This document shows, in pieces, positions 8,401 to 62,038 of a stretch of 64,000 nt of DNA (position 1 is its first letter; the number at the start of each line of letters is the position of its first letter). The notes under the pieces are model-generated. The model had not been told where the DNA came from. It made no database searches and saw only the letters and a list, made by a program, of their open reading frames with translations. Both the position numbers and the translations under genes were made by a program. The stretch comes from Naegleria gruberi (Eukaryota): assembly GCA_000004985.1 (NCBI GenBank), contig GG738884.1. One strand, given 5' to 3'.

Positions 8401-11400
8401 TTAATTAGTGCCCCCTCCAACATTATTACTGGAATTATTATTCTTTGATATATATTGATATTCTAATTGGTCACTATCCTTAGATAAATTAGAGTCTGGA
8501 TAACTTTGCTTTTCAGTATTATGAATGTTATGATTACTATTATTATTACTATTTTGTTGAGGGTCATCTTGGCTAACTACATGACCTGCCACCTCGTCTT
8601 CACTTACAACTGCACAAGCATGGTGATGAGCTTTCATCATGTAGGTTGTACATAAGCCTTTTCCTTTCACTTCAACCATTCTTTCTTCAAATTCAAAACC
8701 TAAATCATAAACTCTTTCGTAGGTTGATCGAGAACAGTGGATTCTACCGCCTAAACTTGTACTTTCCATTCTTGAGGCCATATTAATGGTATCACCCCAC
8801 AAATCATAAGCAAACTTCTTGGTACCAATAACACCAGCAACTACACCTCCTGTATTAATACCAACACGAACATTGATTTGATGTCCAAGTGCTTGACGAT
8901 TCTCCAAGTTATAATTTCTCAATACTGCGAAAATATCCATTGCAAATCTGAGAGTTCTTTCAGGGTGATCTGATTGAGTATTACCAATACCACCAACACA
9001 AAAGTAAGCATCACCAATGGTCTTGATCTTTTCCAATTGATACTTGTCTGTGAGTGAGTCAAAACCATTGACCACAGAGTTCAACATCATGACAATTTCA
9101 GTTGGTGTAAGACAACTACTAATAGATGTAAATCCAACCATATCAGAGAAGAAACATGTAATATCATTGAACTTTTCAGCAATGAATGTTTCACCTGATT
9201 TGAGTCTATTGGCAACAGCTTCAGGAAGGATTGAACGAAGGAGATTTTCCGACTTTTTCTTTTCTTCTGCCAACAGGGCATTTTGTTTCTTCTCTGAAGT
9301 GACATCCTTAATAAAGCAAGTGACAACAGGCTTGTTATCAAAGAGTGTTGAGAACAAGTTAATCTTGGCAGGGAATTTGGTATTATTCTTTCTGATACAT
9401 TCCACTTCAATAGTTTCTCCTTGAGCATCAGCATTGGTATTATCCTTTGATGCCTTAATCAAATCATCAATAACTTTACCAAGTGTATCTCTGTTAGAGG
9501 AGTCAAACAAATTGAATAATGGCAAACCAACAAAATCAGTTTGCTTACAGCCAAACATTCTCTGGGCTGCTGGATTAAAAATTTCAATATCACCACGATG
9601 GCTACACAACACGGCACCATCAACAGCAGCATTAAGAATATTCTTCACTTTGGAATCATCATTCTTGGCATTTTCCTTTGTTTCTCTATTCTTGAACATT
9701 GTAATTCTTGAAGGTAATGTATGGTACATGATAAAGTTTCTCATTGTTTCTTCAGAGTCCATCAAATCCAAAGGAATGTAATTGAACATAATTCTCACAT
9801 GGAAAACATTATTCCAATGTGAATCAAATATATTGTAAAGAGCAAAGGAGAATACTAACAACAGCACCGCCCCAACTAGTGAAAAGGCAATAACATATGA
9901 CACTGAAGTTACAGAGAATACTGAAATTAATGTATCCAAGAATACTAACAAACGATCAGTCAGAGCATCTGCCAACACATAGGTTTGCACTTGATTGGAG
10001 AAGAGTTTGAAAGTGGCTGATTTCATTGCAAAAATGTCAGCAGTATTTTCAGATGAAAGTTGAGCATAGATTTCAATCAAATGTTCCAAACCCTTGCATG
10101 AATAAATAGTAGAGTTTGATGTGCAGTTTGTGTCTTGCACCATTGAATCAATCTTTGTAGAGATACCAACACTTGGTAACTTGTTATCTTCAACATTACC
10201 ATAGGCCAGATTATTCCAGCTTGAAACAAGATTTGTTGTGAGTGTTTTCATTTCAGTCTTGTAAGAAATAACATCAGATCCTTCCTTTGATAACTGAGGA
10301 TCATTAATAGCAAGTCCACTTGGTAAGGAAATGTAATTAAATAATTCACCAACGTTGAATGTTGTTCTTTGAATGGATGAGAGAGCTGTTGTTGCTTCCT
10401 TAATATTTAACATGGTACGGTGGGTAGAAATGGTATTGAATGAAGATTCCATGTAGAACATTCCTGAGCACAGAATTGTCACACCCACAATACACAAACC
10501 AATGAGAGCAGCACTCATGTACGGTTTTAGAATTCTCTTTGGTAATTGAATAGAGGCATCATCCACTTCAGATTGCTTTCCTAGGTTATGGTAAATCTTA
10601 CCAATAACATCTTTAGGTACATTCTTTTCCAAGAGTTTAACAAATGTCTTGAGGGAAGAAAAGCTAATTGTTACATAAACCACATAGACAATAGTAAGGA
10701 CACCATAAAGTGAATTGGATGCTAAAAAGTAAATGAAAAAGCTTTGGTCAAGTACTTCCGTTTTTTGTTGAGTTCTGGAAATAAAACTTTGACAAAAAAC
10801 ATCAAAGGCCCCTTGGAATGCATCTTGGTTCAACCACAAGAACATGAATGGATATGAACTGAGCGTGCTATTGTACTCATTTGGTGAGAGGCCTTCAAAA
10901 TATTCTATGTGTTTCATCATTGAGTAGACCATTTGGGAAATCGAGACATTACTTGGGTTAGTATTATTAAAGATACCCAAATCGTTTGGATTTTCAACGT
11001 TTGGAACAACAATTTGCCTGCTAACAGAAATATAATCAGAGTACATCTCTGGTGTGAATAAACCTTTTTGACCCATTACCCTAAGGTCATCAATGAATTG
11101 CTTTGCTTTTGATAACTTTCCTTTCAGCTTGGCAATGAACTCTTCAGTGCTGCTCATATCGAGAGTATGTAATAATTTTAGATTTTCAGATGGGCTGTTC
11201 TTGTAGAGATTCAAGTAGGTTTGTTGTAAACGAATATCTCTCAATGCAAGAAGAGGGACCATTCTTGGCTTGCATGCACTTTGCACTGCCTTAATATCAC
11301 TTAATACCAAGCTTGAAATAACAGAGTCCCATATTATACCTGATGCCAATAGTAAGAAAGAAGCAATAACGAAAATTAAAAAGGAAAGTAGCTGAACATT

Positions 11401-13587
11401 ATGTTGCTGAGGAGTAGCAAGCGATGATCTGAGAATACTTTCTCTCTTCAGTTGAGGATTGTTTTCAACGCCATCCATTCTTTGAGATCCAAGATCAAAT
11501 TCCGAGGCTCTTTCGAATGGTTCATCTGGATCATCAAATTCATTAAAATCAGCTGTTGAAGCAATATTATTACCCTTCTTGATACCAAATGAGAAGGTTT
11601 TACCTCCTGCTTCAGAGAATTTGGTCGAAGATGGAGGTGGATTGTCATCAAATGAAAAGTTTGGAACTATACGATTCTTCTTACTAGCTCCCTTTTTCAA
11701 ATTTGGTCTGAACTTCATTTTGGCTTCTTCATCTTCAATAGCCATAGCTTCTTGGAAGAGCTCTTGAGCAAATTCCTTATTGAATTTGAATTTTTCCACA
11801 TAAGATGCATAGTAACGAAGGACAGTCTTGTTATTTCTATGCTTGGCTATCAAATTTTGGAATGTTGATTCACACTCTGACATTAATTCGGAAGCTCTAG
11901 TGTTGGTTTGCTCAATCTTGTCAAAATTGATGATATCATTGGTCATTTCCTTCCAAAAAGCTCTGTGCAATGCTGCTAATTCGGACTGATTCTTCTCCAT
12001 TCTTTGCAAGAAGAATTTCAATTCGTATGGATTAGAGTTGTCAATCATTTCAAATTCCTTTTCTCTTTCAGAAATTAAGAATTTGTATAAAAAGTTTGGC
12101 TTTGCTTTCAGGGCCTTCTTTAAAAGTGATGAGGCAAAGACTTGAGCATTGACTTCATTCTTCCAATAGTAGGAAACAATTAAACTGCATGTAAGCAAGA
12201 GTCGAGAATCATTAAAGCTCTTTTGTAAAGATGCACCCTTAATAAGACTGAGAGCAATTTCTGGATCTGTAATGTCATCACCCTCTGTTCTATTCTTTGA
12301 TTTAAGAGAAAATTTAAAGAAGAGATTCAACTGTTTCAATCTATTATCTTCTTCAAATTCTTGATAGACAAGCTGAGCCTCCTTTTCCAGCATTTTAAGT
12401 GGAAGCTTTTCAGCATCAGCGTTTCCATCATTGCTTCTTCTGAGAATAGAGGATAATGCCTCAGCACGACGAATACTCACCATGAATCTACCTCTGACCT
12501 TTCTATAAATTACCGTCATGTATATTTCCAATCCTGCCATTCCCACCAAGAAACCAGTCATGATCAAACCCAAGGTAAGACCTGCGCCGAGACCAATACC
12601 CAATATGGAATTATCATCTGAATTGACTATTGAAGTTATTAATGCACCAATGGCTGCTCCCAATCTAGCCCCTGCAACACCAAAAACAAAAGAATTTTCA
12701 GTCTTTCTATAGAATGGTAAAAAGTAAAAAATCAAGACCATGAATACAAGTGTGATAGTGATATGTATCACAGATCTAATGTAGGCATATTGCTGAGGTA
12801 CCACATACATTAGCATTAATTGAAGTGGATTAGCAACAGACAAAAAACCCATTGGTATATTATTATCACCAATAAAGTAGCCTCCCTTAGTTTGTTCGGA
12901 TTCTTGTGAAATCATAATTGATAAAAAGTTCAAAATAAGCATTGGTATAAAGGCTATAATCATCAAGACAATGAGGACAATATTACCTGACATGACACAT
13001 GGTGTGGTATTAAATCTCGAGAGAACATAAATCTGTTCATCATAATTACTAATTGTGTGTAAAGCACTTGTATCACAATCAATAAAGGATGTAAATATAA
13101 AAGTCATTATCATACTAAGAACTTGAATAATATTTCCTAGTGTGGTGGCAGCCTTCTTGTAACGATCTAATTGTTTGCTAGATCGAAAGATTGCATGTAA
13201 GGCAAGGAAGAAACTCACCACTCCACAAGCTATTAACAAAAAGCTTGCTGCTCCAAGTGCTGCAATAGCACCAAAAGGTAAAAGGTGGAATGAAAGTGTT
13301 ATTGGATAATTAATAACTGTGAATAACCATTCTCCATATTCTCCCCAATTATAAGAACCTAGTGTTGGAAGAAATATAGAGACCCAAAATATGTACAAGT
13401 AGTATATTATAGACAGAGTTTTCCTTTTCCATCCATATTGCTTAACTTCGGATGATTCCATCGAAATCACAAACTTTGTAAAGCCCTCCTGTATCTTTAA
13501 CCATACTGATGCATAGAGTGAGGAACCTCCAGATGACTCTGATGAAACATTTGAACCTAGGGCAGAACCTTCATGATTTTGGTCCAT
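8401..13587 (-). CDS. Multi-pass membrane class III adenylyl cyclase with a PAS domain and a single C-terminal cyclase homology domain (1728 aa)
   Basis: Single uninterrupted ORF. There are hydrophobic TM clusters in the N-terminal ~400 aa and again at ~aa 700-1150. A PAS-like segment (AAVDGAVLCSHRGDIEIFNPAAQRMFG...) lies at about nt 9360-9720. The cyclase domain at about nt 8640-9240 carries both metal Asp (FFSDMVGFT, IGDAYF), transition-state N/R (GINTG...ASRMES) and substrate-specifying Lys (EKIKTIGD) and Asp (YDLWGD), giving ATP specificity in a homodimer-type cyclase homology domain. Confidence 0.9.
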   Translation of the reverse strand: MDQNHEGSALGSNVSSESSGGSSLYASVWLKIQEGFTKFVISMESSEVKQYGWKRKTLSIIYYLYIFWVSIFLPTLGSYNWGEYGEWLFTVINYPITLSFHLLPFGAIAALGAASFLLIACGVVSFFLALHAIFRSSKQLDRYKKAATTLGNIIQVLSMIMTFIFTSFIDCDTSALHTISNYDEQIYVLSRFNTTPCVMSGNIVLIVLMIIAFIPMLILNFLSIMISQESEQTKGGYFIGDNNIPMGFLSVANPLQLMLMYVVPQQYAYIRSVIHITITLVFMVLIFYFLPFYRKTENSFVFGVAGARLGAAIGALITSIVNSDDNSILGIGLGAGLTLGLIMTGFLVGMAGLEIYMTVIYRKVRGRFMVSIRRAEALSSILRRSNDGNADAEKLPLKMLEKEAQLVYQEFEEDNRLKQLNLFFKFSLKSKNRTEGDDITDPEIALSLIKGASLQKSFNDSRLLLTCSLIVSYYWKNEVNAQVFASSLLKKALKAKPNFLYKFLISEREKEFEMIDNSNPYELKFFLQRMEKNQSELAALHRAFWKEMTNDIINFDKIEQTNTRASELMSECESTFQNLIAKHRNNKTVLRYYASYVEKFKFNKEFAQELFQEAMAIEDEEAKMKFRPNLKKGASKKNRIVPNFSFDDNPPPSSTKFSEAGGKTFSFGIKKGNNIASTADFNEFDDPDEPFERASEFDLGSQRMDGVENNPQLKRESILRSSLATPQQHNVQLLSFLIFVIASFLLLASGIIWDSVISSLVLSDIKAVQSACKPRMVPLLALRDIRLQQTYLNLYKNSPSENLKLLHTLDMSSTEEFIAKLKGKLSKAKQFIDDLRVMGQKGLFTPEMYSDYISVSRQIVVPNVENPNDLGIFNNTNPSNVSISQMVYSMMKHIEYFEGLSPNEYNSTLSSYPFMFLWLNQDAFQGAFDVFCQSFISRTQQKTEVLDQSFFIYFLASNSLYGVLTIVYVVYVTISFSSLKTFVKLLEKNVPKDVIGKIYHNLGKQSEVDDASIQLPKRILKPYMSAALIGLCIVGVTILCSGMFYMESSFNTISTHRTMLNIKEATTALSSIQRTTFNVGELFNYISLPSGLAINDPQLSKEGSDVISYKTEMKTLTTNLVSSWNNLAYGNVEDNKLPSVGISTKIDSMVQDTNCTSNSTIYSCKGLEHLIEIYAQLSSENTADIFAMKSATFKLFSNQVQTYVLADALTDRLLVFLDTLISVFSVTSVSYVIAFSLVGAVLLLVFSFALYNIFDSHWNNVFHVRIMFNYIPLDLMDSEETMRNFIMYHTLPSRITMFKNRETKENAKNDDSKVKNILNAAVDGAVLCSHRGDIEIFNPAAQRMFGCKQTDFVGLPLFNLFDSSNRDTLGKVIDDLIKASKDNTNADAQGETIEVECIRKNNTKFPAKINLFSTLFDNKPVVTCFIKDVTSEKKQNALLAEEKKKSENLLRSILPEAVANRLKSGETFIAEKFNDITCFFSDMVGFTSISSCLTPTEIVMMLNSVVNGFDSLTDKYQLEKIKTIGDAYFCVGGIGNTQSDHPERTLRFAMDIFAVLRNYNLENRQALGHQINVRVGINTGGVVAGVIGTKKFAYDLWGDTINMASRMESTSLGGRIHCSRSTYERVYDLGFEFEERMVEVKGKGLCTTYMMKAHHHACAVVSEDEVAGHVVSQDDPQQNSNNNSNHNIHNTEKQSYPDSNLSKDSDQLEYQYISKNNNSSNNVGGGTN

Positions 13588-31282: not shown

Positions 31283-33508
31283 TTAGTTTTTCAGAATTAT
31301 ACTCATGGTTTTTTGTGGATCATCAAATGGACATGCCAATACTTCACAACATCCAAGAGTTGAATCACTCATGTCGAGATCAGTCATTTCAAAAACATTT
31401 TCCTGTTTTTCATAGAGTGGTCTCATGTCTGGATTATCCTTGAATGCCAAGTGTCGAATCCAAAATGCTCTATCAAATCCTTTGAGTAGAATCCATTCAT
31501 TCTTATGATTGTGCTTAAAATCTGGATCCTTAGTTTCCAATTGTTTAACAAAGAGATCCAATTCGGAGTGAGTTAGGAATTTCTTGACCTTTTCCTTAAT
31601 GGAAAACTTTTCTCTAAAGGCAGGGTTTAGTTTAATTTCCATCTGGCATCTTCCATATTTACGCATATCTCGCATGTATTGTCCCATTGGACTGTCACTG
31701 TTGAGTAGATTTTCCAACACTTCTCTCTTTCCAATACTATCCAAAATGTCAAAGATGAAATCTTGGCAATTACCAGTATTCACATAATTTTTCAATGATT
31801 TGCTAGATTTCTTAGGTTTTTTAGATTTCTTCTTTCGTTTTCTCTCGCTATAAATCATGGTGGTATTCCATCGACAAATTACCTCGGAAAGTTTCTTTAC
31901 AATATCTTCCAAATCGTGAGCTGTCGTAATTTCTTCAATATCTGCTGAAAAGAAACTAGATTGAGAACTTAATTTACGTGGTATACATAGTGAGCTATCT
32001 GTCCATTCAAGTTTAAATTCTGAAATGACAAGAGCTGTATGGAACATGCCAAATGCAGGAAGAATTTTAACTGGTGACAAGAGTGGGCTCACTATTTGAC
32101 GAATAGTTTGTTTCGTCTTGTTATGGTGATGCATATCTGTCACAATCAACTTGATTTTGATGGATTTTTCAAGAGTTGGATTCGAACGCCACCAATCTTT
32201 CAAATTATCTTCTGACAAATTTTCAGTAAATGATCCCTGAGTATTATTACTTGTTCCAGCAAATGATTCTGAAAGTCCAGCACTTGTCATGGAAGCTCCA
32301 ATATTTGCAGAATTGCTCTCAATTCCATGATGACTCAATGTCAAATCTCTTGGAATATCAGCTGCTGCACTACTTCTTGTTAAATTACTTCCTGGAGTTG
32401 ATTGTTGAATGTTTGAAGGAGTATTTGATGAATTATTGATGAATTGAGGTGGTGTCATTAATACCTGATCCATTACAATACTAGTGGTGAGAGCTGTAAT
32501 TGGAGTATGATTAGAATGTAAGTTTGGAGTATTAGAAACTGAATTACTTGTTGGTTTCTTGATTGGAGTGTTATTGTTACTATTGGCGAGGTCTAGAATT
32601 TCATCTGACCACTTGACTTCCTTCTTATTAGTTTGATTTGAGGAATCGTCTACTGTTTCACTTTGTGAAGTAATATTATTCGAAAGACCTTCAAATACTT
32701 TGGCTACATTTTCTTGAATCATATTCGAAGAACTATTCTCAAAATCCATCTGAGAAAGTCCAACATCAAACGAAAGTATTTCATCAAGTTCTTTCTTTTC
32801 ACTTTCCAATAAATTTTCTTCATTTCCTGAGTCACTTTCGTTCAATGTTTTTTCTGTTGTAGCTTTAGCACTTGCAATAATTTCATAGAATTGTGGAGAG
32901 AATAGATGCATATTCTTTGCATTCTTCTTTTTGACCGTATGATTTAAAGTAGCATTCAAGGAAGAAGAATTATTCGAAAGTGTATTTTCAGAAGAAGAAA
33001 CATTTTCAGTTTTTTCTTCATTTTCATGAATATGTTCATCTTCACCTGCACTGCTCATCATTTCACTTTCTAACATTCTCACCTTCTCATCCCATTGTTT
33101 CGTAATTGTATTATCCAAGTTTAGGTAAGTTTCCAACATACTCTTCGGATCAGACAAACACATTGAATAACGTTCCATAATATACTCATCATTATGAATA
33201 TCTTCAAAAAGCACACAATTCTTAATTTTCGAATAAGTTACCCTTTGCGGAGGTAAAAGATGTGCCGGAGCATTTAAATTAGCATGATTAATTAATTGTT
33301 GATACATTTCTTCATCGATAATGATGGAATTTGTTGTGGTTGTGGTTTGTATTGATGAATTGTGAGTGGAAGTTGATGTAGAGTTGTGAGTTTCAGAATT
33401 TGTCTGATTGAAAGAGTCAGTTGATTGGTCATGTTGATGGGTGGCAGGTGGCAGGGAGTTGTTGTTGTTGGGGTTATCACCAGCTAGACGGCTAGTTTTG
33501 GAACCCAT
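31283..33508 (-). CDS. N-myristoylation-motif protein with a long low-complexity region and a C-terminal PPPDE/DeSI-like (permuted papain fold) putative peptidase domain
   Basis: Starts MGSKTSR (Gly2, Ser6 consensus). C-terminal motifs FGMFHTALVI and NTGNCQDFIFDILDSIG, ~75 aa apart, match the His...NCNhF catalytic dyad arrangement of PPPDE/DeSI proteins. Confidence 0.5.
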   Translation of the reverse strand: MGSKTSRLAGDNPNNNNSLPPATHQHDQSTDSFNQTNSETHNSTSTSTHNSSIQTTTTTNSIIIDEEMYQQLINHANLNAPAHLLPPQRVTYSKIKNCVLFEDIHNDEYIMERYSMCLSDPKSMLETYLNLDNTITKQWDEKVRMLESEMMSSAGEDEHIHENEEKTENVSSSENTLSNNSSSLNATLNHTVKKKNAKNMHLFSPQFYEIIASAKATTEKTLNESDSGNEENLLESEKKELDEILSFDVGLSQMDFENSSSNMIQENVAKVFEGLSNNITSQSETVDDSSNQTNKKEVKWSDEILDLANSNNNTPIKKPTSNSVSNTPNLHSNHTPITALTTSIVMDQVLMTPPQFINNSSNTPSNIQQSTPGSNLTRSSAAADIPRDLTLSHHGIESNSANIGASMTSAGLSESFAGTSNNTQGSFTENLSEDNLKDWWRSNPTLEKSIKIKLIVTDMHHHNKTKQTIRQIVSPLLSPVKILPAFGMFHTALVISEFKLEWTDSSLCIPRKLSSQSSFFSADIEEITTAHDLEDIVKKLSEVICRWNTTMIYSERKRKKKSKKPKKSSKSLKNYVNTGNCQDFIFDILDSIGKREVLENLLNSDSPMGQYMRDMRKYGRCQMEIKLNPAFREKFSIKEKVKKFLTHSELDLFVKQLETKDPDFKHNHKNEWILLKGFDRAFWIRHLAFKDNPDMRPLYEKQENVFEMTDLDMSDSTLGCCEVLACPFDDPQKTMSIILKN

Positions 33509-56208: not shown

Positions 56209-58140
56209 ATGGGAAAGAGAGAATTATACAGAAATAAACAAGCTTTGGCTAATGCTGCTCCTCTGGCTCAAGCACACTCCCAACCGCTTGGTATTACCAT
56301 CGGAGCACGTACATCTAATGTAAAGATGCCTAAGGAGGCCATTCCAGCCATCTATTATGAAAAGATTTTAAAATACATGAAAACAAAGGAAATGTTGAAT
56401 GATATTGCAGGAGCTTGCACTAAATATTTGTACAAACCATCGGATTGGAAGTATTATTACTTTGAACATCGTTGGAAGGAATATTCTAACGTGAGAAGAG
56501 CCTTGCGTAAATTAATTCAAATGGGAACACTTCAAGTCTTGTTGAGAGGAAAGTATTATAAGGAAGAGACTTCTGATCCAGAAGCTATTACAAGTGGTGG
56601 TGCCTCTTCTTCTACTGATAATAATCAATCAGCTGATGCTAGTAATGTTGCTTCCGAAGAAGTTTTACAAGTAAAAGAAGAAGAATTTGAAACTTTTGTA
56701 ATTGGAGGAAGAACATTAACTAGAAAAAAGTATGTAAAGGCTTCTTCTGTGCCATCGAATAAGAAGGCCACCACTCCAGTTGATCAAGAGGAAATTCAAA
56801 TTGAAGAAGAAGAAACAATTAATCAACAAGCAATGAATAAGAAGAATAAGAAGAAGAATAAGAAAAACAAAAAGAAGGATCCTTTTGAATTGGATGAGGA
56901 AAATGATGATCAAGATGATGGAACTTTTGATGGATTTGAAATTACCAGAGATGAGGATCGTCCACAATTATATGAATTGAATGAATGGAAAGATGATCCA
57001 AAGAAGAATAAGAAACAAAATAAGAAACAAAACAAAAAGCAAAGTTCTAGTTTGGAAATTGAAGAAGATACTTTTGTAAAGGAAGAAGAAGGTGGTGATA
57101 AGGGAATTCCTTCTAAAGCTGTACATATTGATTTTAATAATATCAAAAAGATTGTAAAGGCAACTGAAAAGATTGATTGTGCTGAAAATGAAGCAGTTCA
57201 GAATATTACTCTCAACTTGACAAGAAAATCAAAGGAAGAATCATCCAGCTCTCAGAAAACTGTGATTCAGGTTGTTAAAGGTGACATGTTGGAAACTGCA
57301 ATTAGTTTGAGAAGGATTTGTAAACTTAATCCACTCGTTTTGGTCTCTGGTAGCCAAACTGTTCCAGGAGGATCTTTTGCTAAGGGAGGAAATACTCAAG
57401 AGGAAGATTTCTGTAGAAGATCATCATTGTCTTTAGCAATTGCTGATCCATACAGATTTGATGAAACTAGAGAGTGGACTTACCCATTACCTGAATTTGG
57501 AGGAATTTATACACCAAATGTTGTAGTGTTAAGAGGTCCAAAGAGCGATGGATATGCCTTCTTGGATAGAACATGGGCTTGCTCAATGTTTATCACCTAT
57601 CCTTATGTGAATCCACCAACAGAGAAGAGAAAGGTAGCCGATCCAAATACTGTCATTCCAAATGAAGAGGACGATGACGAAGAAGTAACAACTGAGAATT
57701 TCCTCTCTACCAAATTGTCCAACTCAATGAAGAAGAAGATTGCTGCCTACTTTGATGTTGCATTAAAGAAGGGTCATGATTCTCTTGTTATTGGTGCTCT
57801 TGGTTGTGAAAATACTCACTCCAATCCTGCCTATCATATTGCTCAACTTTTCAAGGAAGTATTGGCAAGTGAAATTTTCAAGGACAAGTTCAAGGTTGTC
57901 ATTTTCTCTATTTTGGTTGATAAGGAAACTGATAGCAAGTTGGCCAATGAAGGTGGTGCTGACGATGTGGAAGAAGTTGAGGATAATGATGACGTCGAAG
58001 ATCAACAAGATATCTCAACCAATCTGCTCGATACTTCAATTGAAAGAAAGAATAATCTTTCAGTATTTTCCAAATTATTCCACGGAAAGGAAGAAGCTCC
58101 AACAGCTGAAGAATTCATTCCAACCATTGAATGTAAATAA
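56209..58140 (+). CDS. Bacterial-type poly(ADP-ribose) glycohydrolase (DUF2263/TIGR02452 macrodomain) with an N-terminal unknown domain and a K/N/E-rich linker
   Basis: The C-terminal 300 aa carry the PARG catalytic signature GGG-X6-8-QEE (LVLVSGSQTVPGGSFAKGGNTQEEDFCRRSSLSLAI) and the second conserved block LVIGALGCENTHSNPAYHIAQLFKEVL. The linker contains NKKNKKKNKKNKKKD and KKNKKQNKKQNKKQ repeats. Confidence 0.65.
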   Translation: MGKRELYRNKQALANAAPLAQAHSQPLGITIGARTSNVKMPKEAIPAIYYEKILKYMKTKEMLNDIAGACTKYLYKPSDWKYYYFEHRWKEYSNVRRALRKLIQMGTLQVLLRGKYYKEETSDPEAITSGGASSSTDNNQSADASNVASEEVLQVKEEEFETFVIGGRTLTRKKYVKASSVPSNKKATTPVDQEEIQIEEEETINQQAMNKKNKKKNKKNKKKDPFELDEENDDQDDGTFDGFEITRDEDRPQLYELNEWKDDPKKNKKQNKKQNKKQSSSLEIEEDTFVKEEEGGDKGIPSKAVHIDFNNIKKIVKATEKIDCAENEAVQNITLNLTRKSKEESSSSQKTVIQVVKGDMLETAISLRRICKLNPLVLVSGSQTVPGGSFAKGGNTQEEDFCRRSSLSLAIADPYRFDETREWTYPLPEFGGIYTPNVVVLRGPKSDGYAFLDRTWACSMFITYPYVNPPTEKRKVADPNTVIPNEEDDDEEVTTENFLSTKLSNSMKKKIAAYFDVALKKGHDSLVIGALGCENTHSNPAYHIAQLFKEVLASEIFKDKFKVVIFSILVDKETDSKLANEGGADDVEEVEDNDDVEDQQDISTNLLDTSIERKNNLSVFSKLFHGKEEAPTAEEFIPTIECK

Positions 58141-58258: not shown

Positions 58259-59131
58259 TTAATTACTCTTGTCTGATTCTTCGCTCTTCTTGGCATTCTT
58301 GATGAGCCATTGTAAAGTCTTGTCAATATTTACAGAATTTTTAGCACTAATTGAGTAGCAAGATACTTCTCGTCCAGTAATAAGTTTGAGATCCAATTTG
58401 TCAATTAATTCTTGTACACCTCTAGCATTTGGTAAATCATTCTTATTTCCAAGTACCAGTAAAGGAATAGTCGAAAGAGAGGCTTTTCCAACCAATTCAT
58501 GAAGCTCCTTTTTGGCTACTTCCAATGTTTGTTCATCACTTGCAGAGTCCACAACATATACAATAGCTCCAACTCCTCTACAATATCTCTGTGTTTTTTG
58601 AAATGTAATATTATAACAATCATAATATTAGATAGAATGTGATGACAACAAGTATGAAATTAAAATTAAATATATTACGTTCATATCAAATACATACCTC
58701 CCACATGTTTCTGAATTTGGATTGACCTATTATTGTCAATTTAAATCATCGTTAGTATCATGATAATCCAAAGTTATTAGAAAAATATTAAATGATTAGA
58801 ATAACAATTTGTCATCACAGTTGAACAACATATGATGGACCATCATCATAGTTAATAGTGATGATTATAATAATAAATAATTGAATAGTTTTCAAAAGAA
58901 TGACATACCTCCGATATCCCACAACTTGATTTCTACACCTCCTTTACTCACTTTTCGCATATTAAAGCCAATAGTTGGTATAGTATCCTCATTCATCTGA
59001 CCAAATGAAATTGTATTTACAAGTGTCGTTTTACCAGCATTTTGCAATCCGACCAATGTAAGTTCCAACTCTTGCTTCCAGAAGAGTGATTTAATCCAAT
59101 CCATCAATGATTTCAAAGCTGCTGCTAACAT
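58259..59131 (-). CDS. ARL8: ARF-like small GTPase ARL8. Three exons: 59131..58909, 58726..58698 (a 29-nt micro-exon), 58588..58259.
   Basis: Spliced product: [75 protein letters not shown]|QSKFRNMWE|[20 protein letters not shown]...[12 protein letters not shown]...[20 protein letters not shown]. This closely parallels ARL8 ([14 protein letters not shown]...IPTVGFNMRK...[20 protein letters not shown]...GNKRDLPNAL...CYSISCKE..NIDITLQWL). Both donors are GTATGT. Confidence 0.85.
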
Positions 59132-59531
59132 TTTCCTCTATTATTACTATTATTTTGTACAAATTTTGCTTTCTCTATGATGTGCTATCTCAACGACTAC
59201 GATAATGATGACTATTAATGACGATGAAATAATATTATCGTTGTTGCTCGGTGATGACAAGATTTTTTTAATAAATTTTTTTTAAAGTTGTTGTTTGCTT
59301 TGCAACGTTTATTTGCTAAATTAAAAATTGATGACGAAAATAAACTCGACAACTCCAATTGGAAGAGGTTTTGAAAAAGATTCTCCGGTAAGAGAGACTT
59401 AGTGAAACATTGAAGATTGTTAAATAGTATTAATAGAGGAATGTACATTGAATATTTGTTGAATTTGATGAAATAATAATGATATCTGCTGTCAGCCATC
59501 AAACAACTTCAGTGAAAGGAAAAACAAAAAA

Positions 59532-61586
59532 ATGGGACAAAACCATTCAGGTGGATCAAATTCTGTGGGTGGAATGGGAGGAACACTAGTTGGAGATCAA
59601 TACAAACCACCAGATCGTACCACAAACAATCTAGCTTCCTCCTTTCATACCAAAGAATCCATCAAAATTCAACAGCAGCAACAACAACAACCCGATTCAA
59701 ATACAAACAACAATAATACATCGTCAGGTAATCTTGTTCTGATAGCAGCATCCAACACTTCCGATGCCTTGCTCATGTCCATCGCAGAGTTAGTCATTGT
59801 TCTCCAACAATTGGGTGAGATTCATCTCGTTGTCTTGCTGGAGGAAATTTCTCGTCACTACTACGAGATTCAAATTGGAGGCAATTTTTCTTCTCTGGAA
59901 GCAATTGCTGCTGCTAACAATAACACACAAGGAAATGGCGCCACTTCTCCAACACAAAATTTACAGGGTGGTGGCCCTCTCGCCAGTACATCATTTAAAA
60001 ATGGCGCCACTGGAAATTATGGCAACTCGAATGTAGATAATGGTCTGAAGAAGTACATTAATTGTGCCAAGTATACTCCCACTTGGTTGGAAGATGAGGG
60101 TGTATTTGGAGGTGGTGGTGGTATCGGAAGTGGATCGATTGGTAGAGGGAGTAGAATTAGTATTGGAGCAACATCAGGAAATAATGGCATGGATGAAGAT
60201 GATATGGAGGAGGATTATGGTGTAAATTATAATACGGATTCTGCTTTTCAGGTCTGGTTGATTGCATTGAAGGATAGACAATTACCGAGATTTAAGAGAA
60301 AATTGGAAAAGTTATTTGTGGATAATAGTGGAGGAGCAAGGAAGGTTGCCTTCTCTTTCAATGTACAAATGTCAACCTCATCGACAAATAGTTTGAGAAG
60401 AGCTTCTTCATTCCTACACGCACAAACTAATCCAAAAACTAATTATGTCATTGATATGGATAGTAAGCAGAAATATTTTGAGGTGAGGTCAGAGATGGAA
60501 ATTATTCTCACTCATACTCTTGAGGAAATTAAAGATTTGAAAGAATGTTTGGATGCAAAGAGAAAAATCGAAGGAGGAACATCAAGTACCAGTGGAGCTG
60601 ATGTTGCCGATGTTTCGGTTCTCCTTCAAGATTTTGATTTTGAATGTAGTTGGTGGGAGAAGAAGATTGGCTCCTCCAATTTCAGTGTCAAGAAGAAGGC
60701 ATTTATTGATGCCATTGAAGAAACTTTTGCTCACTTGAAAGTCAAGTTTGAAATTGAGGTTTTGGAAGAGATTTCAGATCCAACTTGTGATGGAGTTGTA
60801 AGTGTGACAGATTTGAAAACTCTCACTAGATGGTTGGGCAGTATTTACAAGTGGAATACTGACGAATTGAAATTGAGAAATATTGCTGGAAAAGAAGATG
60901 CTGCACCAGTTATTTTCCTTCCTCATTTTTGGGGTTCAGTGACATGTTACGATGCACAAGATATTTTACAAAAGGAAGAACCTGGAACGTACATTATTCG
61001 TTTCAATGAGAACGAGCCTGGGCATTACTACATTTCATGTGTTCAGGAAAATGTTGTGGAAAATGAGGAGACTAGCTCAAATACTGGATTTTTTGCCACT
61101 CGTCAAGTGTATCACTTTGTATTGAAGAGAGGAAAAACTGAGAAGGGAGAACCTTACTATTACTTGTCCGATGCTGATAAGAGTCACAAATTCAAGACCA
61201 TTACTGAGCTACTTGATAAGAATTACTTTTTGACATTCAAATATCCATATGTCAATGACGATCTCAAGTCTGCATTTGTTTCAAAGAAGAGAGATGTCGA
61301 TGTCTTTGGTGCATTGAAGAGTTTATCAGGAGAGGGTGATGATTTGAATCCTTATCCATTTGTTGTATATAAGGGAAAGTTCAATGTTAATGAAAAGAAG
61401 AAGGAATCAGACATGAAAAAGATTGCCAATTTAGCTAAAAAGACTACTGAGCCGTCATTGGGCAATCCAGTCAATAATAATTCATCCTCAAGCATTAAAG
61501 ATCAAGAACCAGGTATGGTACGAGTGGATTCCCTCAATTTACCACTGAGTAATAGCAAGGAAGAAACTTTAGATTTATCTGAATAA
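59532..61586 (+). CDS. SH2-domain protein with an N-myristoylation motif and a Q/N/G-rich N-terminal half (possibly STAT-linker/SH2-like)
   Basis: Starts MGQNHSG (Gly2, Ser6). SH2 signature near aa 470-520: FWGSVTCYDAQDILQKEEPGTYIIRFNENEPGHYYISCV (W-x-G, FLVR-type Arg). No kinase or phosphatase domain is present. Confidence 0.6.
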   Translation: MGQNHSGGSNSVGGMGGTLVGDQYKPPDRTTNNLASSFHTKESIKIQQQQQQQPDSNTNNNNTSSGNLVLIAASNTSDALLMSIAELVIVLQQLGEIHLVVLLEEISRHYYEIQIGGNFSSLEAIAAANNNTQGNGATSPTQNLQGGGPLASTSFKNGATGNYGNSNVDNGLKKYINCAKYTPTWLEDEGVFGGGGGIGSGSIGRGSRISIGATSGNNGMDEDDMEEDYGVNYNTDSAFQVWLIALKDRQLPRFKRKLEKLFVDNSGGARKVAFSFNVQMSTSSTNSLRRASSFLHAQTNPKTNYVIDMDSKQKYFEVRSEMEIILTHTLEEIKDLKECLDAKRKIEGGTSSTSGADVADVSVLLQDFDFECSWWEKKIGSSNFSVKKKAFIDAIEETFAHLKVKFEIEVLEEISDPTCDGVVSVTDLKTLTRWLGSIYKWNTDELKLRNIAGKEDAAPVIFLPHFWGSVTCYDAQDILQKEEPGTYIIRFNENEPGHYYISCVQENVVENEETSSNTGFFATRQVYHFVLKRGKTEKGEPYYYLSDADKSHKFKTITELLDKNYFLTFKYPYVNDDLKSAFVSKKRDVDVFGALKSLSGEGDDLNPYPFVVYKGKFNVNEKKKESDMKKIANLAKKTTEPSLGNPVNNNSSSSIKDQEPGMVRVDSLNLPLSNSKEETLDLSE

Positions 61587-61967: not shown

Positions 61968-62038
61968 TCGGGTGTGGTATAGTGGTAGCATTCCAGACTG
62001 TCACTCTGGCGACCCGGGTTCAATTCCCGGCACTCGAG
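61968..62038 (+). tRNA. tRNA-Asp (anticodon GUC)
   Basis: TCGGGTGTGGTATAGTGGTAGCATTCCAGACTGTCACTCTGGCGACCCGGGTTCAATTCCCGGCACTCGAG aligns nearly residue-for-residue with eukaryotic tRNA-Asp. Anticodon stem CCAGA/TCTGG with loop CTGTCAC. T-arm CCGGG TTCAATT CCCGG. Confidence 0.85.

Follow-up and report, generated by a model that had tools for sequence, protein, structure and literature searches.

Among the genes in the 64,000-nucleotide window of Naegleria gruberi DNA analysed here is one whose product contains an SH2 domain. A sequence-only reading had placed this domain behind a region resembling a STAT linker and an N-myristoylation signal, which raises the question of what kind of SH2 protein the locus encodes. 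We think it probable that the product of 59532..61586 is a RING-less phosphotyrosine-binding adaptor, similar to the TKB module of Cbl and probably attached to membranes through a myristate on its N-terminus.

The gene and its features are listed in Table 1, together with a second gene that the same reading had linked to it by a similar N-terminus. Both open reading frames were described correctly. In each, the start codon is the earliest in-frame ATG following a stop, and the orthologues of both proteins in other Naegleria species share the MG start, so that both genes are single-exon with a well-defined N-terminus. A gene predicted on an ENA metagenome contig matches the SH2 protein at 100% identity; its N. 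fowleri orthologue is FDP41_011575, and another orthologue is present in N. lovaniensis (52%). The order of its parts is N-myristoylation motif, helical region, Cbl-type EF-hand, SH2 domain and, last, a disordered tail that carries a C-terminal motif. The neighbouring genes that we inspected encode a microbial-type PARG, a ZIP transporter, an F-box/LRR protein, a PAS-cyclase and an Arf-family GTPase; no functional link between them and the SH2 gene was evident on inspection. The SH2 protein and its neighbours point to Naegleria/Heterolobosea, in line with the suggestion that the SH2 domain would help to place the organism.

Table 1. Position of the two genes and of their observed and predicted features in the window.
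Feature	Residues	Position	Strand	Basis
SH2-protein gene, single-exon, 684 aa + stop	1-684	59532..61586	+	ORF list; starts MGQNHSG
MGQNHSG, predicted N-myristoylation signal (Gly2, Ser6)		59532..59552	+	PROSITE-type pattern fit
First conserved helical segment, candidate four-helix-bundle helix	78-113	59763..59870	+	Block in family alignment A5
Conserved helical segment, SAFQVWLIALKDRQLPRFKRKLEKLF	237-262	60240..60317	+	Conserved in alignments A1/A5; helix in low-confidence AF2 model
SLRRASSF, putative basophilic (RRxS-type) Ser phosphorylation site in disordered loop		60390..60413	+	Invariant in 3 aligned orthologues
Long helix, C-terminal part similar to c-Cbl 4H helix αD	310-345	60459..60566	+	hhalign, A5 against c-Cbl
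Cbl-type EF-hand domain (the earlier 'STAT-linker-like' stretch)	364-441	60621..60854	+	Cbl_N2, EF-only profile
EF-hand loop DPTCDGVVSVTD (c-Cbl counterpart, DLTCNDYISVFE)	416-427	60777..60812	+	Alignment to c-Cbl loop
SH2 domain, full-length canonical, including helix αB and strand βG	466-572	60927..61247	+	Pfam, family profile
Conserved post-SH2 segment, ends PFVVYKGKF	573-617	61248..61382	+	Family alignment; F610, G615 invariant
C-terminal acidic-hydrophobic motif EETLDLSE		61560..61583	+	Recurs in most full-length family members
Second gene, 741 aa, conserved heterolobosean protein, MGSKTSR myristoylation motif		31283..33508	-	ORF list
Candidate His/Cys domain of second protein, PPPDE-like at motif level only	451-594	31727..32158	-	Motifs, conservation

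The SH2 domain is bona fide, as had been proposed. Pfam PF00017 matches the window protein at residues 466-561 with an E-value of 1.4e-7 and a score of 32 bits, above the gathering score of 21 bits, and the match covers profile positions 2-74 of 77. All 19 family members are matched by PF00017 (best E-value, 2e-11). When the PDB was searched with the family profile, SHP2 (E=3e-12), Dd-STATa (1.4e-8) and c-Cbl (1.2e-6) were retrieved, and Grb2 was also matched. Arg490 (60999..61001), which is invariant in the 19 family sequences, aligns with the βB5 (FLVR) arginine of Frk, Grb2, SHP2, Dd-STATa and c-Cbl (R294); His528 at βD4 is near-invariant. The αA2 position is occupied by Cys472 rather than an arginine, and by Ser or other residues in the paralogues. 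The affinity for phosphotyrosine could be low for this reason. Cbl likewise has no αA2 arginine, yet it binds phosphotyrosine. We infer that the SH2 protein does so as well.

The segment that had been compared to a STAT linker, KKAFIDAIEETFAHLKVKFEIEVLEE, is present at residues 388-413 within a conserved helical domain, but this domain is better described, on the strength of profile comparisons, as an EF-hand of the Cbl type (Pfam Cbl_N2). In the window protein itself the Cbl_N2 match is weak (E=0.18 and 0.044; 12.9-14.9 bits against a cut-off of 22), so that the assignment rests on family profiles. Cbl_N2 matches 17 of the 19 family members at E<=1 (best, 3.5e-8) and exceeds the cut-off in one of them, P0021, as well as in several matches outside the family, always directly upstream of the SH2 domain. 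A profile of the EF-hand region only (A7) retrieved c-Cbl or Cbl-b structures as its top 31 matches in the PDB, with E-values of 2e-4 to 4e-3 over 76 of 83 positions; there was no STAT chain at E<=10, even though the library includes 1uur. In the EF-hand loop, D416, T418, D420 and D427 (loop positions 1, 3, 5 and 12) are invariant in the 19 sequences, and the loop may bind Ca2+. An hhalign comparison of family alignment A5 with c-Cbl residues 47-435 (sequence verified as identical to 2y1m) gave a probability of 96% and an E-value of 3.9e-9 over 158 columns, running from 4H helix αD through the EF-hand to SH2 strand βC and starting with residue 322 of the window protein opposite residue 108 of the c-Cbl chain. 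Cbl was found in the PDB search only with an 18-sequence profile; the single sequence and a profile of three orthologues gave weak SH2 matches only. The two descriptions of this region are related, since an EF-hand motif has been described within the STAT linker itself (PMC4206453), and the family profile co-aligns with Dd-STATa over the last EF helix and the first half of the SH2 domain.

The TKB has been defined as 4H, a Ca2+-binding EF-hand and an SH2 domain (PMC4356231). The window protein is collinear with the TKB of c-Cbl and Cbl-b (2cbl, 1b47, 2y1m), beginning at the last 4H helix, continuing across the EF-hand and extending into the SH2 domain. In Cbl the three elements pack into a single phosphopeptide-binding unit; by analogy, a packing of the EF-hand against the SH2 domain is putative in the window protein, for which an AlphaFold2 model of the core from a 3-sequence alignment had a mean pLDDT of 33.7 and was unusable. 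The EF loop pattern D-x-T-C-[DN]-x-x-[IV]-S-V-x-[DE] is common to Cbl and the window family, and the two are alike in keeping the βB5 arginine without that at αA2. The family alignment contains four conserved helical blocks upstream of the EF-hand, and Pfam Cbl_N (four-helix bundle) had no match in the 19 members; only the last helix is detectably similar by hhalign (IILTHTLEEIK in the window protein, LIFSHMLAELK in c-Cbl). The remaining 4H region is not detectably Cbl-like and is broken by long low-complexity loops. Unlike Cbl, the window protein lacks a linker helix, a RING, a proline-rich region and a UBA, and its N-terminal myristoylation motif and C-terminal acidic-hydrophobic motif are not found in Cbl. 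The SH2 domains also differ, that of Cbl being truncated (Cbl_N3 type), whereas Cbl_N3 was matched in only two of the 19 family members, at E~0.06.

These differences bear on whether the window protein could be Naegleria's own Cbl and hence, as a true orthologue, an E3 ubiquitin ligase targeting Tyr-phosphorylated proteins. The alignment of the EF-hand and SH2 domain with the c-Cbl TKB is what such an orthologue would give, and a Cbl orthologue in Dictyostelium (PMC2906285) demonstrates that pre-metazoan Cbl proteins exist. Against this, the 123 residues from position 562 to the C-terminus (684) contain not a single Cys or His, ruling out a RING; the conserved post-SH2 block of the paralogues is also devoid of Cys and His, Pfam scans of the window protein and the 19 members returned no RING family, and the SH2 domain is complete. 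We consider Cbl orthology very unlikely and reject it for want of a RING. Ligase activity of the Cbl kind is effectively refuted, unless the tail recruits a separate RING subunit. We also consider it very unlikely that the protein is a STAT-type transcription factor with a linker and SH2 domain, which would be activated when tyrosine phosphorylation allows it to dimerise through the SH2 domain. In the PDB, Dd-STATa (1uur) is one of the better matches, with an E-value of 0.012 already for the single sequence; it has a helical EF-hand-like domain right before the SH2 domain, as in the window protein, and the N-terminal halves of the two SH2 domains are clearly similar in sequence (GTFIIRFSERNPGQF compared with GTYIIRFNENEPGHY). 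This resemblance and the EF-hand motif of the STAT linker are outweighed by the Cbl-exclusive result of the EF-only search and by the Pfam scans of the 19 members, none of which matched STAT_bind, STAT_alpha or the Dictyostelium STAT coiled-coil and Ig families at E<=1. The window protein has no DNA-binding barrel, coiled coil or evident tyrosine phosphorylation/dimerisation tail: the interval between the helices and the EF-hand is too short for a β-barrel DNA-binding domain, and inspection of the alignment, by eye and not systematic, revealed no conserved C-terminal tyrosine motif. The conserved N-myristoylation motif, which we agree would be atypical for a STAT, argues for a membrane rather than a nuclear protein. 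STAT membership was rejected on the EF-only and Pfam results. The protein, with its TKB-like module but no RING and no detected STAT DNA-binding domain, is therefore neither a Cbl ligase nor a STAT.

The prediction that both proteins are N-myristoylated is supported in that the motif is conserved in both despite highly divergent N-termini. The PROSITE-type pattern that we used, MG-{EDRKHPFYW}-x-x-[STAGCN]-{P}, is matched by only two of the 28 window ORFs of at least 200 residues, 59532..61586 and 31283..33508. Most paralogues of the SH2 protein begin with MG[QN]xxS; of the 15 family members whose N-terminus is complete, 11 have Gly2 and eight fit the pattern in full. In two orthologue/paralogue lineages the small residue at position 6 is replaced by Gln or Pro. 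Gly2 is kept even though the ~70 residues after the motif are low-complexity sequence that cannot be aligned. In the second protein the MGSKxS start is kept, and all six orthologue N-termini fit the pattern. The motif of the SH2 protein is not followed by a Cys or a polybasic patch that could act as a second membrane signal, for which reason its membrane binding could be transient. Lipidation and membrane location of the SH2 protein are thus predictions from a conserved motif.

Outside the EF-hand and SH2 domain, several short elements are conserved. Inspection by eye shows the SLRRASSF site in the orthologue from N. fowleri too, and the paralogues have RRSLK or KRKSFKRASSF at this position; a basophilic kinase may act here. 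The conserved post-SH2 segment (residues 573-617) has no match in Pfam. At the extreme C-terminus the family consensus is E-[ND]-x-I-x-L-x-E-E, which follows S/T/N-rich tails that cannot be aligned. By eye, neither a clathrin box (L-φ-x-φ-[DE]) nor an acidic dileucine motif ([DE]xxxL[LI]) fits it consistently.

The window protein has several paralogues, which together with it make up a small family in Naegleria-type amoebae; Willaertia magna has members, as do N. gruberi (XP_002676191), N. fowleri and N. lovaniensis. The same architecture is present in orthologues and paralogues entered in databases as 'SH2 domain-containing protein' from N. gruberi (XP_002676191), N. fowleri (FDP41_011575, FDP41_001841) and N. 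lovaniensis (C9374_003621, C9374_009398, C9374_006412); they are named by the SH2 domain only, and the Cbl-type EF-hand, myristoylation signal and C-terminal motif are not annotated. The literature that we searched contains no experimental work on any family member. At E-values of 1e-9 to 1e-4 the family profile also retrieves EF-hand-SH2 proteins of other protists. Those of Pharyngomonas kirbyi, Protostelium and Cavostelium have the pair of Cbl_N2 and SH2 in common with the Naegleria family, as do metagenomic proteins with RasGEF/RhoGAP/PH, SAM or tandem-SH2 architectures. The surrounding domains of these other-protist proteins are different, however; they lack the post-SH2 block and the C-terminal motif of the Naegleria family, and those with complete N-termini have no MG start.

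Whether the SH2 domain reads phosphotyrosine has to be asked because the organism has no conventional tyrosine kinases. The fold could be real and nevertheless recognise pSer/pThr or unphosphorylated ligands; the SH2 domain of Spt6 binds pSer/pThr. The missing αA2 arginine, at a position that varies across the family, would fit such a function. The invariant βB5 arginine and the near-invariant βD4 histidine would not, and Cbl is a precedent for phosphotyrosine binding without the αA2 residue. Dictyostelium provides another precedent, as its SH2/STAT signalling runs on TKL kinases only. A survey of N. gruberi counted five SH2 domains, three PTPs and no group-A tyrosine kinases (PMC4342544). The absence of the kinases favours a non-phosphotyrosine ligand, while the retention of three classical PTPs speaks against one. 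On balance, we regard a ligand other than phosphotyrosine as unlikely. To take the SH2 domain as evidence for phosphotyrosine signalling, as the sequence-only reading did, is reasonable but not new, the SH2 domains of N. gruberi having been counted already in that survey.

A membrane-tethered phosphotyrosine adaptor is the most likely role of the SH2 protein, given its domain content, and we can envisage its action as follows. Co-translational myristoylation of Gly2 would place the protein at a membrane, where the EF-hand/SH2 unit would dock, using R490 and H528, onto a Tyr-phosphorylated partner. As Naegleria has no conventional tyrosine kinases, the phosphotyrosine would come from dual-specificity or TKL-type kinases. 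The long disordered tail, with its conserved acidic-hydrophobic motif, would then recruit an effector, and the invariant RRxS site in the loop might be a point of regulation by a basophilic Ser/Thr kinase.

Identifying an SH2 domain here adds nothing by itself, because the SH2 domains of Naegleria have already been counted and annotated. What is new is that they sit in a RING-less, Cbl-TKB-like EF-hand/SH2 module, that this module has radiated into a family of heterolobosean paralogues, the pathogen N. fowleri included, and that most members have a conserved lipid-anchor signal and C-terminal docking motif. The family yields testable candidate phosphotyrosine readers in a lineage that is far from animals and has no classical tyrosine kinases, and it bears on the antiquity of the EF-hand-SH2 unit common to Cbl and STAT. 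A TKB-like supradomain of EF-hand and SH2 may predate the split between Discoba and Amorphea, their common ancestor having carried the form from which the Cbl TKB and the STAT linker-SH2 region are both derived, a proposal that we make tentatively and consider doubtful. If it were true, the unit would not have originated on the animal/amoebozoan side of the tree, and the proteins of Naegleria and Willaertia would represent a radiation specific to their lineage: phosphotyrosine readers that are lipid-anchored and possibly modulated by Ca2+, in a cell without a conventional tyrosine kinase. Alternatively, heteroloboseans could have gained the EF-hand-SH2 module by gene transfer from amoebozoans.

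The second gene is a separate matter. Its product, for which Willaertia magna, N. fowleri and N. lovaniensis have orthologues, had been predicted to be myristoylated and to end in a PPPDE (peptidase C97) domain. The MG-x3-S start and the myristoylation motif stand; the PPPDE assignment is not confirmed by Pfam or profile searches, and its C-terminal placement does not hold. Pfam, including PF05903, had no match in five orthologues at E<=10, a PDB search with the family profile was empty at the same threshold despite the presence of DeSI structures, and hhalign gave probabilities of 1-2% against DeSI-1 and DeSI-2. The latter comparison is a weak test of the assignment, since the DeSI profile (A8) has little diversity: it goes back to a search with human DeSI-1 whose best 120 of 490 matches are all close DeSI-1 orthologues, mostly vertebrate, and includes an unverified DeSI-2 sequence. 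An AlphaFold2 model of the C-terminal half from five sequences was also unusable (pLDDT 44).

What is left of the PPPDE claim is the match to the His box, together with an 'NC' box of ambiguous status. The candidate domain has the motifs KIKLIVTDM, GMFHTALVI (with H490), SLCIPRK and GNCQDF (with C581), and H490 and C581 are invariant in five orthologues. Against human DeSI-1 (sequence verified against 3ebq), hhalign aligned β1 and the His box, KIKLIVTDM...SPLL...GMFHTALVI..EF with VKLYVYDL...SPIM...GIWHTSIVV..EF, with 33% identity over 52 columns at a probability of ~1%. The cysteine alignment was not reproduced, because both HMMER and hhalign placed GNCQDFIFDILDSIGK on the helix before the catalytic-Cys helix and not on the NCNxF motif. 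When a DeSI HMM was run against the five real sequences and 2000 shuffled decoys, the former took ranks 2-17 of 2005, a result that is not an unbiased P-value, as the hypothesis came from the same motifs. A divergent permuted papain of the PPPDE/DeSI type, with an H490/C581 dyad and a function as membrane-tethered deSUMOylase, deubiquitinase or depalmitoylase, is conceivable, although we lean against it. The second gene encodes a conserved, probably myristoylated heterolobosean protein for which the PPPDE/DeSI fold is only a candidate. It resembles DeSI-1 and DeSI-2 (3ebq, 2wp7) in β1, the G[IM][WF]HT[SA][IL]V[VI] His box and a later N-C-x-x-F motif, and it differs from them in its 741-residue context, in a Lys-rich insert between the motifs and in a further ~150 conserved residues beyond the putative domain (residues ~450-595).

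Both open reading frames lie exactly at the coordinates assigned to them in the sequence-only reading, each opening at the earliest ATG that follows a stop codon in its frame. The window is AT-rich (G+C ~32-37%), and its genes are compact, eukaryotic and mostly without introns. For both the SH2 protein and the second protein, Naegleria lovaniensis, N. fowleri and Willaertia magna supply the nearest database relatives, while copies close to identity were found in metagenome contigs only; this places the window in a Naegleria-like heterolobosean.

Features of the window and of the SH2 protein
Feature	Position	Strand or protein	Details
SH2 protein gene	59532..61586	+	684 aa, N-terminus MGQNHSG
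Second protein gene	31283..33508	-	741 aa, N-terminus MGSKTSR
RRxS-type site SLRRASSF	aa 287-294	SH2 protein	invariant in aligned orthologues
C-terminal acidic-hydrophobic motif EETLDLSE	61560-61583	SH2 protein	after long Ser/Thr/Asn-rich tail
Arf/Arl-type small-GTPase gene	58259-59131	-	split, intron-containing
tRNA-Asp (GTC) gene	61968-62038	+	~380 bp downstream of SH2 gene
PARG-type ORF	56209-58140	+	643 aa; microbial-type poly(ADP-ribose) glycohydrolase catalytic domain, PF10021, E=1.5e-17
Cyclase ORF	8401-13587	-	1728 aa; TPR repeats, PAS domain, adenylate/guanylate cyclase catalytic domain

The SH2 domain is genuine. Residues 466-561 match Pfam PF00017 above its gathering score (E=1.4e-7; 32 bits against 21), and the match spans positions 2-74 of the 77-position profile, which bears out the assignment. 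PDB searches, whether with the single sequence or with a profile, align YIIRFNE to the FLVRES strand found in Frk, Grb2, Csk, SHP2, Dictyostelium STATa and c-Cbl. The FLVR arginine, on whose alignment the SH2 call had been made to depend, is R490 (βB5), invariant in the 19-member alignment of paralogues and orthologues (the family), and the call survives; the βD4 histidine, H528, is nearly invariant. The αA2 arginine is missing, with Cys472 at its position. SH2 domains in Naegleria are already published, and family proteins carry the database label 'SH2 domain-containing', among them N. gruberi XP_002676191 ('SH2 domain-containing protein').

When an orthologue profile was run exhaustively with HMMER against 1.8 billion representative proteins, 72 of them matched at E≤1e-3. 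The best 17 all have E≤2.1e-13 (12 of them E≤1e-30), with homology spanning the helices, the pre-SH2 stretch, the SH2 domain and the post-SH2 block; the named members among these 17 are paralogues from N. lovaniensis, N. fowleri, N. gruberi (XP_002676191) and Willaertia magna. Of the weaker matches, those that extend over the pre-SH2 stretch and SH2 domain come from Pharyngomonas, Protostelium, Cavostelium and metagenomic eukaryotes, and most have Cbl_N2, the EF-hand-like domain of Cbl, immediately N-terminal to SH2, in several cases above the gathering score. Their architectures differ and include RasGEF/RhoGAP/PH, SAM and tandem SH2.

The pre-SH2 stretch of the SH2 protein (KKAFIDAIEETFAHLKVKFEIEVLEE...) had been likened to a STAT linker. 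It matches Pfam Cbl_N2 weakly (E=0.18 and 0.044). In the family, 17 of the 19 members match Cbl_N2 at E≤1 (best, 3.5e-8); STAT families, Cbl_N (4H) and RING families were matched in none of the 19. A profile of this stretch alone (83 positions, SH2 left out) retrieved c-Cbl or Cbl-b as its top 31 PDB matches (E 2e-4 to 4e-3, positions 5-80), and generic EF-hand proteins came next; not one STAT chain was retrieved at E≤10 from a library containing Dd-STATa. Cbl's tyrosine-kinase-binding (TKB) domain combines a four-helix bundle with a Ca2+-binding EF-hand and an SH2 domain (PMC4356231). When the family alignment was compared by hhalign with c-Cbl residues 47-435 (389/389 identical to PDB 2y1m), the match (probability 96%, E=3.9e-9, 158 columns) ran from 4H helix αD (LIFSHMLAELK in c-Cbl, IILTHTLEEIK in the family) through the whole EF-hand (EFWRKAFGEK with SWWEKKIGSS; IDLTCNDYISVFEF with ISDPTCDGVVSVTDL) and into SH2 up to βC. 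EF loop positions 1, 3, 5 and 12, the Ca2+ ligands in the Cbl TKB, are D416, T418, D420 and D427, invariant in 19/19 sequences. From sequence comparison, the Cbl TKB is the specific relative that can be demonstrated. Dd-STATa aligns when SH2 is included, from the last EF helix onward only, in keeping with a published account in which the STAT linker has an EF-hand motif (PMC4206453); the STAT-linker reading was right in direction.

The 123 residues C-terminal to SH2 are devoid of Cys and His, which excludes a RING, and we reject a Cbl ligase; moreover, the SH2 domain here is complete and canonical, whereas that of Cbl is of the truncated Cbl_N3 type. A STAT is likewise rejected, with no STAT DNA-binding or coiled-coil families detectable by Pfam in the 19 family members, and the conserved, predicted lipid anchor would not be compatible with a transcription factor of the latent kind. 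Homology to the four-helix bundle is demonstrable in its last helix only; upstream of it are three more conserved helical blocks with long low-complexity loops between them. An AlphaFold2 model of the core from a shallow 3-sequence alignment reached pLDDT 33.7, too low to be usable.

The predicted N-myristoylation motifs held up in both proteins, in pattern and in relatives. Among 28 window ORFs of ≥200 aa, the PROSITE-type pattern fits these two only. Most Naegleria and Willaertia family members begin MG[QN]xx[ST]; 11 of 15 complete family N-termini keep Gly2 and 8 fit the full pattern. The ~70 residues that follow are unalignable across the family, which argues that the MG motif itself is under selection. 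The second protein starts MGS[KN]xS, fitting the pattern in 6/6 orthologues.

Paralogues of the SH2 protein have basophilic sites at the loop equivalent to its RRxS-type site. The post-SH2 block, with F610 and G615 invariant, has no known counterpart. An acidic-hydrophobic C-terminal motif is present in nearly all full-length family members, as ENxIxLxEE(K) outside the window protein, and fits neither the clathrin-box nor the dileucine consensus. Among numbered homologues, E-[ND]-x-I-x-L-x-E-E stands at the extreme C-terminus of P0011, P0013-P0018, P0205 and P0207, behind unalignable low-complexity tails.

The most likely role of the SH2 protein is that of a membrane-tethered adaptor that binds phosphotyrosine and has a TKB-like EF-hand/SH2 unit as its core; we infer its lipidation, Ca2+ binding and phosphotyrosine binding alike. 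The tail motif may recruit a partner protein. A published survey reports 5 SH2 domains and 3 classical PTPs for Naegleria, but not one group-A tyrosine kinase (PMC4342544). Without the latter, the phosphotyrosine read would have to come from dual-specificity or TKL kinases. Dictyostelium is in the same situation. Functional studies of SH2 signalling outside Metazoa are confined to this organism (PMC2906285). A literature search without the survey PMC4255630 returned no description of a RING-less Cbl-type EF-hand/SH2 architecture, of a heterolobosean paralogue expansion of this family or of its conserved lipid-anchor and C-terminal motifs.

The Pfam family IBP39 (C-terminal domain of the Trichomonas vaginalis initiator-binding protein) was matched by 6/19 family members (best E=1.6e-5). 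The matches are family members within P0011-P0026 and the distant EF-hand-SH2 proteins P0043, P0047, P0068 and P0071; the EF-only profile also matched the IBP39 structure 1q87 (E=0.07). The C-domain of IBP39 may therefore contain this Cbl-type EF-hand module too.

The PPPDE/DeSI domain proposed for the second protein, which is conserved across Naegleria and Willaertia, was not confirmed. Five orthologues gave no Pfam match at E≤10, and the family profile matched no PDB chain in a library holding DeSI-1 structures. With hhalign, KIKLIVTDM...SPLL...GMFHTALVI pairs with VKLYVYDL...SPIM...GIWHTSIVV of DeSI-1 (33% identity, 52 columns), at a probability of only ~1%. In the hhalign and HMMER alignments to DeSI, 'GNCQDFIFDILDSIGK' falls on the helix that precedes the catalytic-Cys helix, not on the NCNxF motif. 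A shuffle test placed the five real sequences at ranks 2-17 among 2005, which is suggestive, yet dependent on how the hypothesis arose. The AlphaFold2 model (pLDDT 44) is unusable. We regard the PPPDE reading as rather doubtful; H490 and C581 are invariant in orthologues, so the protein may be a His/Cys hydrolase. Were it PPPDE-like, lipid-anchored depalmitoylase and deSUMOylase would be equally plausible readings. Many DeSI-1 orthologues are now named 'palmitoyl-protein hydrolase' in UniRef. Overall, the sequence-only reading is partly confirmed: SH2 and myristoylation motifs stand, a Cbl-type EF-hand replaces the STAT linker, and PPPDE is unproven.

Linkage of the two genes is conserved, with an insertion or rearrangement between them. 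On the ENA metagenome contig k141_670410 (L002:1061-5662), a second-protein orthologue (577 aa, minus strand), an Arf-family GTPase gene and an SH2-protein orthologue are adjacent within 4.6 kb. Their order and orientation are those of the window (31283-33508 and 58259-61586), where ~25 kb separates the second protein gene from the GTPase/SH2 pair. Both MG-protein genes of N. fowleri, like those of N. lovaniensis, are on one contig, 18-24 locus tags apart. The Arf/Arl-type gene and the SH2 gene stand head-to-head, with ~400 bp between the former and the start of the latter; L002 keeps this divergent arrangement with a gap of ~140 bp. The tRNA-Asp gene shares sequence with the 5' end of a 111-aa minus-strand ORF, which is spurious. 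The PARG-type ORF begins MGKRELY, with Gly2 present and Lys3 violating the myristoylation pattern.
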